From IMG/VR virus record IMGVR_UViG_2690316109_000023: a stretch of 7,041 bases of DNA. One strand, written 5' to 3'. The notes below the pieces were generated by a model. It had not been told where the DNA came from. It saw only the letters and a list, made by a program, of their open reading frames with translations, and did not search any database. The DNA is from a virus (Duplodnaviria > Heunggongvirae > Uroviricota > Caudoviricetes). A program made the position numbers and the translations under genes. Shown in pieces: positions 1-7,041 of this stretch. Position 1 is the first letter of the stretch; the number at the start of each line of letters is the position of its first letter.

Positions 1-360
1 CGTAAAAAATACCGCAAAAACGCGGTCTGGGTGGTTAACTCCACGACGGCGGCAAAACTTCAGAAGGTGAAGAACGCGAACGGTGATTACATCTGGCGCG
101 ACCGTTTACAGGCGGGTGATCCTGATACGTTGCTGGGCCTTCCGGTCGAATATCTGGAGTTTATGCCTGATAACGTTATTGCCCTGGGTGACTTCAAACG
201 CGGTTACTACATTGTTGATCACGAAACAGGTGTTCGCACCAGACCGGACAACCTCACAGAGCCGGGCTTCATCAAAATTTTCACGCAGAAATATTTAGGC
301 GGTGGCGTGGTGGATTCGAACGCGATCAAGATTCTGGAACTGCCACAGGACGACGATTAA
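1..360 (+). CDS. Major capsid protein, HK97 family (C-terminal part; 5' end is outside the window)
   Basis: Frame 1 is open from base 1 to TAA at 358-360. The translation contains LLGLPVEYLEFMP and GDFKRGYYIVDHE, which resemble the conserved C-terminal motifs of HK97-fold capsid proteins as I remember them (LLG.PV...MP and GDF.RGY.IVDR). Sits in a head-gene cluster. Confidence 0.8.
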   Translation, partial: RKKYRKNAVWVVNSTTAAKLQKVKNANGDYIWRDRLQAGDPDTLLGLPVEYLEFMPDNVIALGDFKRGYYIVDHETGVRTRPDNLTEPGFIKIFTQKYLGGGVVDSNAIKILELPQDDD

Positions 361-370
361 CAGCATACAG

Positions 371-399
371 AAGGGGCTTAAAAGCCCCTTTAGTGTTTT
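371..399 (+). terminator. Candidate rho-independent terminator / attenuator after the capsid gene
   Basis: Inverted repeat AAGGGGCT (371-378) / AGCCCCTT (383-390) with loop TTAA, followed by the T-rich TTTAGTGTTTTA. The U-tract is interrupted, so termination is probably partial. Confidence 0.4.
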
Positions 400-414
400 A
401 TGGGTGAAAAAATT

Positions 415-972
415 ATGAAGAGTATGGAAATCCGGTCATCGGAAATCACTACCAGCGGAGCCGGTACGCTGACGGGCTACGTTGTTCGCTGGGATAAGCT
501 TTCAGAACTGCTATGGGGGGAGTTTTACGAAAAATTCCAGCGGGGGGCGTTTACTGAGTGGCTTGCGGCGGGTAATGACGTTCGCGGCCTGTATGAGCAT
601 GACCACAGCATGTTACTGGGGCGCACCCGTTCCGGCACGCTGAAACTGGAAGAGGACGAAACAGGGTTACGCTTTGAACTGACCCCACCGGATACCAGTA
701 CAGGGCGCGACGTTATCGAACTGGTTAAACGAGGTGATATATCCGGCATGAGCTTTGGCTTTCGTTCCCGTAAGGATGTATGGGATACCACAACAGATCC
801 ATGCGTGCGCACCGTGCTGGTGGCGGAACTATACGAAATTACCGTTACATCCGTACCGGCTTACCCTGATTCCGGCGTGGAGCTGGCCCGCCGCTCCCTG
901 TACGAGCAGCACCCCGAAAAAATGCCGCGTGCGGATAATCGCCGCTGGTGGGCGGATTTAGCGGGGGTGTGA
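415..972 (+). CDS. Prohead maturation protease, HK97 family (peptidase S78/U35)
   Basis: The translation contains HDHSMLLGRTRSGTL and KRGDISGMSFGF, typical of HK97 prohead proteases. Start is ambiguous: ATG at 400 has no RBS, ATG at 415 has GGTGA 7 nt upstream, ATG at 424 is also in frame. Stop TGA 970-972 lies 1 nt before the portal ATG. Confidence 0.85.
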   Translation: MKSMEIRSSEITTSGAGTLTGYVVRWDKLSELLWGEFYEKFQRGAFTEWLAAGNDVRGLYEHDHSMLLGRTRSGTLKLEEDETGLRFELTPPDTSTGRDVIELVKRGDISGMSFGFRSRKDVWDTTTDPCVRTVLVAELYEITVTSVPAYPDSGVELARRSLYEQHPEKMPRADNRRWWADLAGV

Positions 973-973
973 T

Positions 974-2185
974 ATGTGGCCTTTCAGAAGAAAAAAAGAG
1001 CAGCGCAGCATGACGCTTGATGAGTTTATGGCGCTGGCTGGCACATCGAACACGGGGGCGGGTGAGTACGTATCATCGGGGACAGCGGAATCACTGCCCG
1101 CCGTCATGAACGCCGTCACGGTCATCTCTGAGGCGGTGGCTACCATGCCGTGTTACCTGTACCTGGTACGCAATGAGAAGGGGAAGGAGGCCCGAGAGTG
1201 GCTTGATTCTCATCCGGTCGATCACATCCTCAACGAGCGCCCGAACGCATGGCAGACCCCCTACCAGTTTAAGCGAATGATGATCCGCCACTGCCTGTTA
1301 AACGGTAATGCTTATGCGGTGATTCAGTGGGGGCGTGATGGTTTTCCGGTGGCTTTGCATCCTTACCCGCCGCAGTCGGTGAACGTGGAGCAGACAGGTG
1401 AGCATAACTGGCGCTACTGCATCACTGACGCCTACACCGGAAACACCCGCAACTATTTACCGTGGGAGGTTCTCCACCTTCGTTACTCCACGGATGACGG
1501 TTTTATGGGGCGCTCACCTGTAACCATCTGCCGCGAATCGCTGGGGCTTGGGCTGGCCCAACAACGCCACGGCGCGAGCGTGATGCGTGATGGCATGATG
1601 GCGGCAGGGGTTATCACGTCAGGCGAATGGCTGGACGGCGTGAAGGGCAAACAGGCATTAGCCGCACTGGAACGCTACAAAGGGGCCAGAAACGCCGGAA
1701 AAACGCCCATCCTTGAAGGGGGTATGAGCTATCAGCAGCTGGGCATGAGTAATCAGGATGCTGAATGGCTGGCCTCCCGTCGCTTCACCATTGAAGACAT
1801 CGCCCGAATGTTCAACGTCTCGCCGATTTTTTTGCAGGAATACAGCAACAGCACCTACAGCAATTTCAGCGAGGCAAGCCGCGCATTTCTCACCATGACG
1901 ATGCGCCCGTGGCTGGCGAACTTTGAGCAGCAGATAAAAAACGCCCTGCTGGTGGCCTCACCTGTACCTGGTATCCGGTATCAGGTGGAGTTTGACAGCG
2001 CGGACCTGTTACGGGCCACACCTGGCGAACGCTTTGCCACCTATGAACGCGGCATCAAATCCGGCGTTATGTGCCCGAACGAAGCCCGCGAACGTGAAGG
2101 GCTGTCCCCGCGTGATGGTGGTGATGAGTTCAGCCAGGCATGGAAACAGGAAGTAAAAATCAGCGAGGGAGAAAAACCGGAATGA
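974..2185 (+). CDS. Portal protein, HK97 family
   Basis: 403-aa ORF of portal-like size and composition, placed between protease and head-tail adaptor. GGGGG RBS upstream. Stop overlaps the next start (ATGA at 2182-2185). Confidence 0.88.
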   Translation: MWPFRRKKEQRSMTLDEFMALAGTSNTGAGEYVSSGTAESLPAVMNAVTVISEAVATMPCYLYLVRNEKGKEAREWLDSHPVDHILNERPNAWQTPYQFKRMMIRHCLLNGNAYAVIQWGRDGFPVALHPYPPQSVNVEQTGEHNWRYCITDAYTGNTRNYLPWEVLHLRYSTDDGFMGRSPVTICRESLGLGLAQQRHGASVMRDGMMAAGVITSGEWLDGVKGKQALAALERYKGARNAGKTPILEGGMSYQQLGMSNQDAEWLASRRFTIEDIARMFNVSPIFLQEYSNSTYSNFSEASRAFLTMTMRPWLANFEQQIKNALLVASPVPGIRYQVEFDSADLLRATPGERFATYERGIKSGVMCPNEAREREGLSPRDGGDEFSQAWKQEVKISEGEKPE

Positions 2186-2520
2186 ACATAGGGCGACTGC
2201 GTGACAGGGTAACGATTCAGACCCTGAAACAGACCAGGGATATAACCGGCGAAATACTCGAAACGTGGGAGGACGGTCACACACTCTGGGCAAGCGTGAA
2301 CATGATCAGCAGCAAGGAGGCCATTTCATCGGGTGCAGAGCTGGCGATTGGTACCGTAAGGATCTGGATACGGTACCGGAAGGACATCAACGCCACCAGC
2401 CGGATAAAGGTCAGTACGGGGCCGCTGGCGGGGCGTGTACTGAATATCATCGGGCAGCCGCTGCCGGATGCCGCCAGGACACGCCTTGAAATTCTTTGTC
2501 GTGAGGGCGCGGAAAAATGA
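2182..2520 (+). CDS. Head-tail adaptor / head closure protein (Phage_H_T_join-like)
   Basis: N-terminus MNIGRLRDRVTIQ matches the G.LR.RVTIQ signature of head-tail adaptors. GAGGGA RBS 11 nt upstream. ATG 2182 overlaps the portal stop. An in-frame ATG at 2140 is a less likely start because it lies inside the portal gene. Confidence 0.8.
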   Translation: MNIGRLRDRVTIQTLKQTRDITGEILETWEDGHTLWASVNMISSKEAISSGAELAIGTVRIWIRYRKDINATSRIKVSTGPLAGRVLNIIGQPLPDAARTRLEILCREGAEK

Positions 2521-2837
2521 CAGAAGAACTTATCACCCATATAACCGGCGAAATACTCGAAACGTGGGTGGACGGTCACACACTCTGGGCAAGCGTGAAC
2601 ATGATCAGCAGCAAGGAGGCCATTTCATCGGGTGCAGAACTGGCGACTGGAACGGTAAGGATATGGATACGCTACAGGAAGGACATCAACGCCACCAGCC
2701 GGATAAAGGTCAATACGGGGCCGCTGGCGGGGCGTGTACTGAATATCATCGGGCAGCCGCTGCCGGATGCCGCCAGGACACGCCTTGAAATTCTTTGTCG
2801 TGAGGGCGCGGAAAAATGACAGAAGAACTTATCACCC
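2240..2837 (+). repeat. Tandem direct duplication of a 299-bp unit (copy 1 2240-2538, copy 2 2539-2837), 290/299 identical
   Basis: Base-by-base alignment of the two copies gives 9 mismatches (copy 1 positions 2270, 2340, 2348, 2352, 2355, 2364, 2373, 2377, 2414). The unit runs from codon ~20 of the adaptor gene to codon 7 of the connector gene. Confidence 0.92.
2517..2819 (+). CDS. Chimeric duplicate ORF: first 7 codons of the gp6-like connector (MTEELIT) fused in frame to adaptor residues ~21-112; possibly a pseudogene or accessory paralog
   Basis: Created by the 299-bp tandem duplication. ATG 2517 overlaps the adaptor stop (ATGA) and its own stop overlaps the connector ATG at 2816. Differs from the parental adaptor by 3 amino acids (E to V, I to T, S to N). 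Confidence 0.5.
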   Translation: MTEELITHITGEILETWVDGHTLWASVNMISSKEAISSGAELATGTVRIWIRYRKDINATSRIKVNTGPLAGRVLNIIGQPLPDAARTRLEILCREGAEK

Positions 2838-3112
2838 TGGAAGAAGTGAAACTCCATTGCCGCATCGATGGCGACGAGGAAGACCAGTTAATCAGCGGAT
2901 ACATTGCCGCATCGCTTGAGGCGTGCCAGATACACATAGGCAGGCGCTTTGATGACGGGCTGGAGTTCACGCCAGCCATAAAGATTGGCTGCATGATGTT
3001 TATCGCTCACCTGTATGAAAATCGCCAGATTGTCGCGGATAACGCAAAAACACGCGTACCCATGACGATTGGTGCACTCTGGACGGCTTACCGTGATGTG
3101 GGGGTGTACTGA
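2816..3112 (+). CDS. gp6-like head-tail connector protein
   Basis: N-terminus MTEELITLEEVKLHCRIDGDEEDQLISGYIAA resembles the gp6-like head-tail connector family. Stop TGA 3110-3112 overlaps the HNH ATG at 3112. Confidence 0.8.
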   Translation: MTEELITLEEVKLHCRIDGDEEDQLISGYIAASLEACQIHIGRRFDDGLEFTPAIKIGCMMFIAHLYENRQIVADNAKTRVPMTIGALWTAYRDVGVY

Positions 3113-3552
3113 TGCCGTGGCAACCATTAAGACGATGCACAGAACCAGGCTGTAACAGGCGCGTGAAGTCCGGCAAGTGTGAGGAGCACAGGCGGGCGGC
3201 ATGGCGTGCAGAGGATGCCAGACGAGGACACCGCCGCGCGCGTGGGTACTCCAGACAGTGGGAAAAATACCGCGCCATGTATCTGAGTAAAAACCCGTTA
3301 TGCGTGCGATGCCTTGAGAAGGGGATATATACGCCCGCCGTGGTGGTGGATCACATTATCCCGATTAATGGCGGTGATGATGTTCTCTTCTGGCCCGAAT
3401 GGAACCATCAGCCATTGTGCCAGGCGTGTCATAACCAGAAAACGAAGTGGCTTGATCCGGCAACAAAAAGCAAGCGTGCCGCTGGCGGATTCCGTGAGGA
3501 GGAAGAACGGGCCGCTAACCGCAATAACTGGATGTATGACGCTGATGAATGA
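3112..3552 (+). CDS. HNH endonuclease (terminase-associated)
   Basis: Cysteine pairs CTEPGC and CVRC, plus VVDHIIP and NHQPLCQACHNQKT, form an HNH/zinc-finger motif set. Located immediately upstream of terS/terL as in HNH-cos packaging systems. Confidence 0.88.
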   Translation: MPWQPLRRCTEPGCNRRVKSGKCEEHRRAAWRAEDARRGHRRARGYSRQWEKYRAMYLSKNPLCVRCLEKGIYTPAVVVDHIIPINGGDDVLFWPEWNHQPLCQACHNQKTKWLDPATKSKRAAGGFREEEERAANRNNWMYDADE

Positions 3553-3718
3553 GCGGGAACAAAACCGCCTTATCCGTGGACTTATAAGGCAGCGTGACGC
3601 ATGGAAGACACAGGAAACAGGGCATAAAGATAAAGCGTCAGGACGCGCAGAACGCATCACAGCGAAGCGATTAACCGACCGTGACCGCGAGGTTATGGAA
3701 TGTTTCCGCAATCGCTGA
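3545..3718 (+). CDS. Hypothetical small basic protein (57 aa)
   Basis: ORF MNEREQNRLIRGLIRQRDAWK... starts at an ATG overlapping the HNH stop (ATGAATGA), suggesting translational coupling. An in-frame ATG at 3536 is an alternative start. No recognisable domain. Confidence 0.35.
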   Translation: MNEREQNRLIRGLIRQRDAWKTQETGHKDKASGRAERITAKRLTDRDREVMECFRNR

Positions 3719-3842
3719 TGAGGCTGTATGACGGGGTGGGGGGGCGTTTTCAGGACAAACCCGACCCCGCCGGGCACCGAACGCCTCCTCAAATTTTTAT
3801 GCACGGGAATTTTTTGAAAAATAATCTGGCGAAAAAATAAGC
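3719..3842. other. Intergenic region between the HNH-side genes and terS; candidate cos/packaging site
   Basis: G-rich ACGGGGTGGGGGGG (3731-3744) and C-rich CCCGACCCCGCC (3760-3771) form an imperfect inverted repeat (CGGGGTGGGG vs reverse complement CGGGGTCGGG) around an 18-bp spacer, followed by AT-rich DNA. Its position matches where cos lies in HK97-type HNH-dependent systems. Confidence 0.25.
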
Positions 3843-4199
3843 ATGGCAAGACCACCGAAAGCCCCCGCCTACCTGGATGATATCGCCGTGAAGCAGTGGC
3901 GGGAAAAATCGCGGCAGCTTGCGGAACGGGGAGACCTTACCCCCGCCGACTGGAGTAATCTGGAACTGTATTGCGTCAATTACTCGATATACCGGAAAGC
4001 CGTCGCAGACCTTGCGGCACGCGGGTTCAGCATTGTTAACAGTCAGGGCGGCGAGAGCAGAAACCCCGCATTAAGCGCAAAATCCGACGCTGAAAGAGTG
4101 ATGATAAAAATGGCCTCCTTGCTCGGTTTTGACCCGGTAAGCCGCCGTAAAAATCCACCGGAAACAGAAGAAGAGGACGAGCTTGACCGCCTGGAATAA
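3843..4199 (+). CDS. Terminase small subunit (P27 family-like)
   Basis: 118-aa ORF starting MARPPKAPAYLD with an acidic C-terminal tail (ETEEEDELDRLE), immediately upstream of and overlapping the large terminase. Confidence 0.8.
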   Translation: MARPPKAPAYLDDIAVKQWREKSRQLAERGDLTPADWSNLELYCVNYSIYRKAVADLAARGFSIVNSQGGESRNPALSAKSDAERVMIKMASLLGFDPVSRRKNPPETEEEDELDRLE

Positions 4200-5844
4200 G
4201 TACGCAGAAGACGTAAAAACGGGCAAAATTCCGGCCTGTAAACGGTTAAAACAGGCTGTTAAACGGTACTTTTCGGACCTTAAAAGCCCCCTTTACACGT
4301 TCGATCGTGAGGTTGTGGAGCGGTTTATTGCCTTTTCCAGGGTGTGCCCGCACGTAAAAGGGCCGATGCGTGGCAGACCCATTGAGCTGGAGCCGTGGCA
4401 GCAGTTCGCCTTTGCGTGCATCCTCGGCTTTAAGGTTAAGGCCACCGGACGGCGCAAATACACGAGCGCCTTTATCGAAGTGCCGCGCAAAAATGCGAAA
4501 TCCACGACCGCCGCGATTCTGGCTGACTGGTTTCTGATTATGGAGAACGGTCAGCAGGATATTTACACCGCAGCGGTGAGCCGTGACCAGGCGCGGATCG
4601 TCTTTGATGATGCGCGTCAGATGTGCCTTTTATCCCGACCGTTACGCAGGCGGGTGAATATTCAGGCGCATAAGGTGATACACCCGAAAAGCAACAGCCT
4701 GTTAAAGCCGCTGGCAGCAAAAGCGGCAACCATCGAGGGAACAAACCCCAGCCTTTCCATCGTGGACGAATACCACTTGCACCCCGATAACGGCGTTTAT
4801 TCCGCGCTTGAGCTGGGGATGGGCGCACGTCCCGAAGGGCTGTTATTTGCCATTACCACATCAGGCAGCAACGTCGTTTCAGCCTGTAAGCAGCACTATG
4901 ATTATTGCTGCCAGATCCTGGACGGCGAAGAGGTTAACGATTCAATTTTTGTACTGATTTACGAACTGGACGACGAAAACGAGGTTGATGATCCGGCGAT
5001 GTGGATAAAGGCGAACCCTAATATTGATGTTTCCGTGGATCGTGAAAAACTGGCCTCAACCATCCAGAAAGCGCGGGGTATTCCGTCGCAGTGGGTGGAG
5101 ATGATGACAAAGCGATTTAATATCTGGTGTCAGGGGACTACCCCGTGGATGGGTAACGGCGCATGGGCTGAGTGTGCCGGAACGTTCACGGAGGAAGATT
5201 TACACGGCCAGGAGTGTTACGCGGGGCTGGATTTATCATCCACAAGCGATATTTCCAGCGTGTGCTATGCCTTTCCGGTCGGTAAAACCATTATGCTGGT
5301 TTCCCGTCATTATCTGCCGGAGTTCCAGCTACAGAACCCCGCCAATAAAAACCGCGCTGTCTATCGTCAGTGGGCTAAAGCAGGCTGGATACGCACAACG
5401 CCAGGTGACTGCATTGATTACGACCGGATCAGAGATGACATCATGCAGGACGCGGAGAAATTTAATATCAGGCTGGTGGGCTTTGATACGTGGAACGCCA
5501 CGCATCTCAGGACGCAATTACAGGGGGCTGGTTTTGAGGTGGAGCCGTTCCCGCAAACCTACCTCAGATTCAGTCCGGCGGCGAAATCGTTCGAAGTTTT
5601 TGTTAACCGCAGGGTGATTGTGCATCGTGGCGATCCGGTGTTGTCCTGGTCGATGAGTAACGTCGTGATGCAGAGTGACGCGAACGCCAATATCAAGCCG
5701 AACAAGAAAAAATCACCGAACAAGATAGACCCGAGCGTGGCGGCGCTGATGGCGTTTGGTACATTCCAGGCAGAGCATGAGGATTTTGCTTTTGATATAA
5801 GCGACAGCCACCGCCAGAAACTGGAAGAATTTAGCGGGGTGTAA
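4183..5844 (+). CDS. Terminase large subunit (HK97-type)
   Basis: 553-aa ORF of TerL size placed directly after terS. The first in-frame start is TTG at 4183, overlapping the terS 3' end by 17 nt; the next in-frame Met is ~60 codons downstream, so the TTG start is the likely one. Confidence 0.88.
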   Translation: MTAWNKYAEDVKTGKIPACKRLKQAVKRYFSDLKSPLYTFDREVVERFIAFSRVCPHVKGPMRGRPIELEPWQQFAFACILGFKVKATGRRKYTSAFIEVPRKNAKSTTAAILADWFLIMENGQQDIYTAAVSRDQARIVFDDARQMCLLSRPLRRRVNIQAHKVIHPKSNSLLKPLAAKAATIEGTNPSLSIVDEYHLHPDNGVYSALELGMGARPEGLLFAITTSGSNVVSACKQHYDYCCQILDGEEVNDSIFVLIYELDDENEVDDPAMWIKANPNIDVSVDREKLASTIQKARGIPSQWVEMMTKRFNIWCQGTTPWMGNGAWAECAGTFTEEDLHGQECYAGLDLSSTSDISSVCYAFPVGKTIMLVSRHYLPEFQLQNPANKNRAVYRQWAKAGWIRTTPGDCIDYDRIRDDIMQDAEKFNIRLVGFDTWNATHLRTQLQGAGFEVEPFPQTYLRFSPAAKSFEVFVNRRVIVHRGDPVLSWSMSNVVMQSDANANIKPNKKKSPNKIDPSVAALMAFGTFQAEHEDFAFDISDSHRQKLEEFSGV

Positions 5845-6289: not shown

Positions 6290-6700
6290 GGAAACCTCAA
6301 TTTGAGGAAGTCGGCGCGGTAACTCGCTGAACTTTAAGCAAAGCGCAAAATTGCGCTTGCTGAATAATCATTATGATTACGCAGATGATTAAGGAATGAC
6401 CGAAGGCGGAAATTCGCCTGTGGTTAATGGGGGAGTTGCAGATCTGCAACTCGACCATGAAACTACGGAAACTACCCGTAGTTTGGGTAGTAAGAGTAAC
6501 ACCCAGATTTTGGGTCTTACTCGTGATACCCAAATTTGGGGTATCAGTGGCAACCATAACGACTTTCGTTACGGTTGATGCTTTTACCCCATTGGGGGAA
6601 AGGTATTACGATAATCATAACACCTACCGAACAGGTAAAGCCCACCAGCCTGATTAACGTTTAACCGGAAAAAAATTCCGGTAGGTGGGGATCCCCATAT
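6290..6700. other. Hairpin/palindrome-dense non-coding region
   Basis: At least ten dyad elements in ~400 bp: 6295-6307, 6341-6358, 6405-6418, 6433-6452 (perfect 20-mer), 6463-6491, 6494-6522, 6525-6545, 6551-6577, 6587-6597, 6664-6682, 6686-6697 (perfect 12-mer). ORFs in this region are rich in rare codons and lack RBSs. Confidence 0.6.
6433..6452. promoter_or_regulatory. Perfect 20-bp palindrome GAGTTGCAGATCTGCAACTC; candidate dimeric-protein binding site
   Basis: Exact reverse-complement symmetry over 20 bp, verified base by base. Confidence 0.4.
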
Positions 6701-6832: not shown

Positions 6833-6876
6833 TTGCGATTTTTGGCACTTTTTGTGGTGCAAATTATTTAATTAAA

Positions 6877-7041
6877 TCAATTAGTTAGGTTAAATAAGTT
6901 ATATATAACAGCAATAAATAATGCGAGAATAAACGGCACGATGATCTCGGCGGCAAAACGGATACCGCAGAGAATAATGACCAGCATTCCCAACATAATG
7001 ACGATTTTTAGGCCATTGAGCGTGATGATCGGCTTTGCCAT
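6877..7041 (-). pseudogene. tqsA: 5' fragment of an AI-2E family transporter gene (tqsA/ydgG-like): about 45 native codons, then 9 foreign codons and a stop
   Basis: Minus-strand ATG at 7039-7041 translates to [45 protein letters not shown], then IYNLFNLTN and stop (TGA complement at 6877-6879). The hydrophobic N-terminus matches my recollection of E. coli TqsA. Sequence becomes AT-rich and non-coding exactly where the match ends (~6906). Confidence 0.55.

Follow-up and report, generated by a model that had tools for sequence, protein, structure and literature searches.

A 299-bp tandem repeat across the stopper-connector gene boundary of an EcCIEDL933-type element: two natural alleles side by side, found once and probably without new function

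What does it mean when a satellite that must dock the tails of other phages carries, between its two head-completion genes, a third reading frame composed of parts of both? The question is posed by a 7,041-nucleotide stretch of DNA (hereafter the window), in which a 299-bp segment straddling the boundary of the 'adaptor' and 'connector' genes stands twice in tandem. A sequence-only reading of this DNA had raised the idea that extra or altered head-completion proteins arising from such a duplication could change the specificity with which capsids are joined to tails. Its premise, that an element of this kind depends on foreign tails, is right. The answer to the question itself depends on what the two copies are, on whether the arrangement is found anywhere else, and on what the fused reading frame has kept of the protein from which it derives.

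The window comprises the packaging module and the right end of an E. coli capsid-forming PICI (cf-PICI) of the EcCIEDL933 type, inserted in tqsA (Table 1). [quoted passage not shown] We follow the cf-PICI literature in using 'adaptor' for the PF05521 protein and 'connector' for the PF05135 protein (10.1101/2025.02.11.637232). The connector scores 45.8 bits against PF05135 (curated cut-off 21.2). On the 3' side of TerL the window contains a 93-aa ORF, non-coding DNA and a fragment of tqsA, and neither a tail module nor lytic genes were found in the window or in the whole islands of its relatives. Those relatives that are ~99% identical to it are 14.8-kb islands that split tqsA and are devoid of tail and lysis genes; the one in PV15-279 (99% identical) encodes an integrase, an HTH regulator, a primase, an SSB and PerC within its 14.8 kb. 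An integrase with regulation and replication modules, and a size of about 10-18 kb, belong to the description of a cf-PICI, and this part of the element lies beyond the 7-kb window. The prototype cf-PICI, EcCIEDL933 of E. coli O157:H7 EDL933, likewise lacks tail and lysis genes and has a packaging module with 96.4-97.7% nucleotide identity to the window, whereas it adjoins phoQ instead of lying in tqsA, and has one copy of the 299-bp segment where the window has two. Because of its gene order, the island content of its relatives and its identity to EcCIEDL933, we regard the element as an ordinary member of the EcCIEDL933 group. For EcCIEDL933, the production of its own small capsids and transfer by means of helper-phage tails have been established experimentally (10.1101/2022.09.08.507074; 10.1101/2025.02.11.637232), and experiments have also revealed that adaptor and connector together determine the helper tails that are open to a cf-PICI capsid (10.1101/2025.02.11.637232).

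Table 1. Positions of the genes, the repeat copies and the join within the window
Feature	Coordinates	Strand	Basis or detail
Capsid gene, C-terminal part	31-360	+	Pfam
S78 prohead protease	400-972	+	Pfam
Portal	974-2185	+	Pfam
Intact head-closure/stopper gene (cf-PICI 'adaptor'), 112 aa, allele A	2182-2520	+	PF05521
Chimeric ORF, 100 aa	2517-2819	+	ORF list, translations
Intact head-tail connector (gp6/gp15-like), 98 aa	2816-3112	+	PF05135
HNH	3112-3552	+	Pfam
Small terminase (TerS)	3843-4199	+	Pfam
Large terminase (TerL)	4183-5844	+	Pfam
cf-PICI packaging module	31-5844	+	Pfam order
Repeat copy 1 (allele A)	2240-2538	+	TRF
Repeat copy 2 (allele B)	2539-2837	+	TRF
Novel junction	2538-2539	.	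…CTTATCACCC/ATATAACCGG…, no shared bases
Junction-spanning peptide of the chimera			TEELITHITGEILETWVDGHTLWASVNMISSK

The right end of the island has some features of its own. The 5' fragment of tqsA (encoding an AI-2 transporter), split by the island insertion, closes the window at 6877-7041 (-), and mismatches to the relatives are concentrated at 6855-6894, presumably the att junction. Between the 93-aa ORF and the right end of the island, four consecutive strong hairpins occupy 6415-6600 (both strands). The minimum free energy of the + strand RNA is -89.7 kcal/mol, compared to -51.3 +/- 3.6 for shuffled sequences (z = -10.6), and the - strand has z = -8.6. The window contains no RNA family recognised by Rfam, and the hairpin stretch has no match even at E <= 1. 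This stretch is kept in the closest relatives and could encode a structured RNA or serve as an origin, as a packaging signal or as a cluster of terminators.

The repeat itself is far beyond chance. Tandem Repeats Finder (TRF) places one array, and no other, at 2240-2837, where 2.0 copies with a period of 299 match at 96% without indels (score 1133), and direct comparison of the copies gives 290 identical positions out of 299, the mismatches lying, in copy 1 numbering, at 2270, 2340, 2348, 2352, 2355, 2364, 2373, 2377 and 2414. When the comparison is carried base by base beyond the unit, identity extends by 0 bases on either side, and there is therefore no microhomology at 2538/2539; a join lacking shared bases is what one expects for 56% of random joins, (3/4)^2. 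The unit, as seen in copy 1, takes in the 3' 281 bases of the adaptor gene and reaches 22 bases into the connector ORF, the two overlapping by 4 bases. Because a tandem duplication of this segment spans the gene boundary, it leaves both the adaptor and the connector gene intact and places a fusion between them. Since 299 is 2 mod 3, the unit offsets the difference in frame between adaptor and connector, so that the chimera is in frame, an outcome with a prior chance of 1 in 3. Its product consists of MTEELIT (connector codons 1-7), H from the hybrid codon CAT, and adaptor residues 21-112 in their allele-B form, and its translation begins MTEELIT-H-ITGEILETW…. ATGA start/stop overlaps at 2517-2520 and 2816-2819 tie the three ORFs to one another, from which we infer that they may be translationally coupled. 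The chimera, which shares its initiation context upstream with the connector gene, would presumably be expressed. With respect to the extent of the array, the 290/299 count and the lack of microhomology, as well as the in-frame chimeric ORF and its ATGA overlaps, the sequence-only reading was confirmed by TRF and direct comparison on the one hand and by the ORF list and translations on the other.

The nine differences between the copies are standing allelic variation and not divergence after a duplication, because each copy equals a different extant allele and because the differences are mostly synonymous and clustered. Copy 1 has a 100% match over 299 bases to the single-copy segment of 2013C-4991, STEC299 and others, and copy 2 a 100% match over 299 bases to the single-copy segment of O157:H7 PV15-279, O26 RM10386 and others. 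Every one of the nine sites is a population polymorphism among 61 related loci, where the nine-site haplotype A (AGTTCCGCG) occurs in 22/61 and haplotype B (TACAGACAA) in 24/61; with 48-mers covering the SNP cluster, A was detected in 263 and B in 73 of 5,426 complete E. coli genomes. Six of the differences are synonymous and three non-synonymous (the allele-B changes being E30V, I57T and S79N in adaptor numbering), and seven fall within 38 bp. A simple tandem duplication on the same template would have given copies identical at origin, with private differences, and the copies here do not have this character. Judged by these matches, the repeat sets allele A of the segment directly before its allele B. 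The duplication originally proposed thus stands as a tandem structure and falls as a one-template duplication, the copies matching two different natural alleles.

More generally, the E. coli population is dimorphic for the adaptor gene, with A and B as major haplotypes (EcCIEDL933 has allele A at the nine sites) and, as minor ones, the recombinants AGTTCCGCA, AACAGACAA and AGTTCCCCA and a third type, TGCATACCA. This haplotype pattern suggests frequent patchy recombination at a locus of tail specificity. A-like and B elements reside in different, at times co-resident, EcCIEDL933-type cf-PICIs. RM8385 (E. coli O103) has an A-like element adjoining phoQ and a B element in tqsA that are 97.7% identical over 6.7 kb (loci L068 and L069), 2013C-4225 has A and B copies in one chromosome, and E110019 has two B-type elements in one chromosome (L065 and L066), one of these cf-PICI copies having a frameshifted prohead protease. 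The family is strongly mosaic, and inter-element recombination is therefore frequent. Near-identical pairs of cf-PICIs in one chromosome give recombination material to work on and can also mislead an assembly.

The arrangement was found nowhere else. A 48-mer centred on the junction, each half of which is shorter than the megablast word so that the halves cannot seed alone, had no match in 5,426 complete E. coli genomes; an exact junction 28-mer did not occur in the GTDB representative genomes, in IMG/VR or in the JGI metagenomes; and the junction query had no match among phage sequences. With a 100-base junction query, the only matches were permuted two-piece ones from single-copy genomes. 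By exact look-up the chimeric protein was absent among ~15 billion proteins, a collection in which both parental proteins, adaptor and connector, occur exactly on at least 1000 contigs each. In a homology search with the chimera, no match spanned its first 7-8 residues, and everything that matched was either a normal MNIGRL... protein, a partial sequence or one of three frameshifted singletons. The latter (P0038, P0041 and P0042) have a normal adaptor start and then shift, at points that differ among them, to a common alternative frame (…GHQRHQPDKGQYGAAGGACTEYHRAAAAGCRQDTP), and they are probably sequencing errors or pseudogenes; the alternative frame is also open in the window, at 2265-2489 (74 codons).

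The related loci are equally uniform. All 61 of the 61 that have the segment carry one copy of it, with no tandem repeat of >=80 bp, and five loci haplotyped later are also single-copy. The sequence-only reading had suggested looking for duplicated versions among related elements, and none turned up, 66/66 relatives being single-copy. A recurrent or inherited structural variant of cf-PICIs would appear in independent genomes, and no independent genome in the collections and loci searched had the junction or a duplicated adaptor/connector boundary. The closest relatives, L012 (CP182026.1) and L003, which were retrieved by exact-TerL and exact-portal look-ups, are single-copy and of allele A. 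Apart from the repeat, L012 and the window differ at 4 positions (4-5 for L012 and L003), all of them known polymorphic positions; the window has no private singletons there, which speaks for good sequence quality. On either side of the repeat the window resembles allele-A relatives most, its right flank departing from L012 at 1 position and from the nearest B-like loci at 3, and no B-type element with a right flank identical to that of the window turned up among the relatives. Among complete E. coli genomes, none exceeds 99.5% (left flank) or 99.1% (right flank) identity to the window.

Fusion genes in bacteria and phages classically come from tandem duplications across a gene boundary. The window has the same head-to-tail copies and intact flanking genes, and at the join the downstream gene likewise gives its 5' end, and the upstream gene its 3' part, to a fusion. 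Two distinct alleles together with the lack of microhomology argue, however, for an inter-molecular event or an artefact, and against slippage or unequal sister exchange on one template. The explanation we favour, to which we would commit about half of our belief, is a private illegitimate join between two related cf-PICIs, that is, a real one-step event the ORF of which is probably a non-functional by-product. An allele-A element would have been joined without homology, at 2538, to an allele-B element at the position equivalent to 2240. The partners would most likely have been two co-resident or co-replicating cf-PICIs, brought together, for example, by co-replication after induction or by the entry of a second element. 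With a unit that spans the gene boundary, such a join would leave the upstream stopper and the downstream connector intact and produce a fusion ORF between them, its frame being preserved by the 1-in-3 chance, and the repeat would be expected to disappear with time through homologous recombination between the copies, which would leave a single-copy A/B recombinant allele. The co-resident A-like/B pairs of RM8385 and 2013C-4225 and the mosaic nature of the family are in favour of such an event. Because both flanks are A-like, on the other hand, a one-step join with A on the left and B on the right needs an unobserved B parent or an extra crossover. Illegitimate recombination in E. coli, moreover, usually involves a few bases of microhomology, and their lack here also counts against this explanation.

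A possibility to be taken seriously, although we would not place our main trust in it, is that the A and B versions of the 299-bp segment were laid in tandem by an error of assembly, polishing or contig joining, from a source genome or a mixed sample with both allele-A and allele-B elements. False 'heterotype' duplications, in which assembly places two haplotypes of one locus in tandem, are usually met in diploid eukaryotes and are often flanked by gaps; the window is like them in that its copies are two co-existing alleles and the structure is unique to a single sequence, and unlike them in that it has no gap and in that the unit boundaries differ from the limits of the variant block. That the copies are exactly two common alleles, that an allele-B patch sits inside an otherwise allele-A-like backbone, and that the structure is unique among all the collections searched are all as an artefact would have it, and genomes with two ~97.7%-identical cf-PICIs, which are difficult to assemble and polish, do exist. 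Zero microhomology, too, is just the 56% expectation for a random, non-biological join. Against an artefact, de Bruijn or graph assemblers would presumably need reads containing the junction to make a join without shared bases, there are no Ns, and the repeat lies 2.2 kb and 4.2 kb from the ends of the window and so away from a contig end. The rest of the window, furthermore, is without private errors, and both genes and every overlap are preserved. The outermost variant sites lie 30 bp from the left and 124 bp from the right end of the unit, margins that match no single k-mer size. A de Bruijn bubble was considered in particular and rejected: no standard k accounts for the right margin (2538-2414 = 124), and at k=31 the nine sites would make three separate bubbles, the fit of the left margin (2270-2240 = 30) to k=31 being probably a coincidence.

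An improbable third route begins with a tandem duplication of an A segment on the same template (A-A), after which copy 2 was overwritten through gene conversion from an allele-B element. It has the merit of explaining the allele-A-like flanks on both sides; co-resident B elements exist to act as donors, and patchy conversion is common in the family, as the recombinant haplotypes show. It demands, however, two rare events, with no A-A intermediate in the databases searched, and a conversion that changed all nine sites of copy 2 while leaving copy 1 untouched.

Irrespective of how the two alleles came together, the fused reading frame has to be compared to the protein from which most of it derives. 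The full-length adaptor is a gp16-type stopper with a complete PF05521 domain (82.7 bits over profile positions 1-106, the cut-off being 25) and the beta-barrel fold. It is identical at 110/112 residues (98%) to SF1141 in PDB 2KZ4 (E 5e-70), a protein that has been listed as a putative stopper (PMC9701221), and its AlphaFold model (pLDDT 86.8) has the fold of SPP1 gp16 (7Z4W, 2KCA), matching gp16 in 7Z4W with a TM score of 0.78 and also matching stopper or neck proteins of T1, SaPI1 and GTA. In SPP1, gp16 closes the portal channel and offers a tail-docking surface; its N-terminus fits into a crease in the gp15 ring, and its residues 12-30 form a loop projecting toward the tail (PMC9701221). 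In the model of the adaptor, residues 8-19 form strand beta1, 20-24 a turn and 25-41 strand beta2, and the duplication junction maps to the tip of the beta1/beta2 hairpin. Residues 1-20 are the most conserved part of the protein, with 2.34 bits per column versus 1.82 for the rest among 86 diverse homologues; in the same alignment G4 is invariant and 7/20 of the most informative columns fall within residues 1-13. As a separate observation, a protein of 589 aa in the representative library (P0161) has four separate stretches that match the 112-aa head-closure protein, and it may hold several stopper-like domains in one chain.

The chimera lacks precisely this segment. In place of adaptor residues 1-20 it has 8 unrelated residues, MTEELITH, and it scores 60.3 bits against PF05521 over profile positions 22-106 only, of 106, without the N-terminal motif M-x-x-G-x-L-R-x-R-V-T-x-Q and without beta1, and hence short of a full gp16-type domain. 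By homology, what is missing would be the arm with which gp16 docks to the gp15 ring, present in SPP1 gp16 together with beta1, and with it half of the tail-facing hairpin; the beta-barrel core is kept. AlphaFold models the chimera with a pLDDT of 84.5 and turns residues 2-7 into a short substitute strand. This prediction is non-discriminating for the chimera because AlphaFold is confident whether or not the protein is stable, and, taken at face value, it leaves misfolding undemonstrated, which counts against the explanation we favour. By comparison with gp16 we infer that normal docking is improbable for the chimera, which may do nothing or may weakly disturb the assembly of the hexamer. As the conserved N-terminal arm and beta1 are missing, an inert or mildly interfering by-product is what we consider most likely.

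Lastly, we need to consider adaptive innovation, in which the chimera would be built into the neck as a functioning second stopper-like subunit, so that the capsid could dock a wider or different range of helper-phage tails. Such a role is very improbable in our estimation, even though adaptor and connector are known by experiment to set the tail specificity of cf-PICIs (10.1101/2025.02.11.637232), and the chimera is in frame, has the initiation context of the connector, carries E30V, I57T and S79N, and is modelled by AlphaFold as a folded barrel. Against it are the single occurrence, no relative having any duplicated boundary; the loss of the most conserved N-terminal segment with the docking arm; and a lack of changes beyond the pre-existing alleles, and thus of any sign of selection after the event. 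The altered specificity of tail joining envisaged by the sequence-only reading accordingly finds no support, the conserved docking segment being missing and no such form existing in any of the relatives compared. The slightest chance of all we would give to a real intermediate of duplication and divergence, in which full-length A and remodelled B stoppers form mixed hexamers with a broader range of helper tails.

The repeat is, then, probably a one-off rearrangement or an assembly error, with no new function. The cf-PICI family, the gp16-type stopper and gp6/gp15-type adaptor families and the class of mutation are all already known, and what is new is this one private hetero-allelic instance only. 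As it stands, it is a single unconfirmed occurrence with a product that is probably defective. It nevertheless carries a caution: apparent duplications in genomes with two near-identical islands need to be checked allele by allele and against the reads before they are interpreted. If real, the repeat would be a natural example of how recombination between co-resident satellites makes fusion genes at a tail-compatibility locus, and tail compatibility is a topical question for the cf-PICIs.
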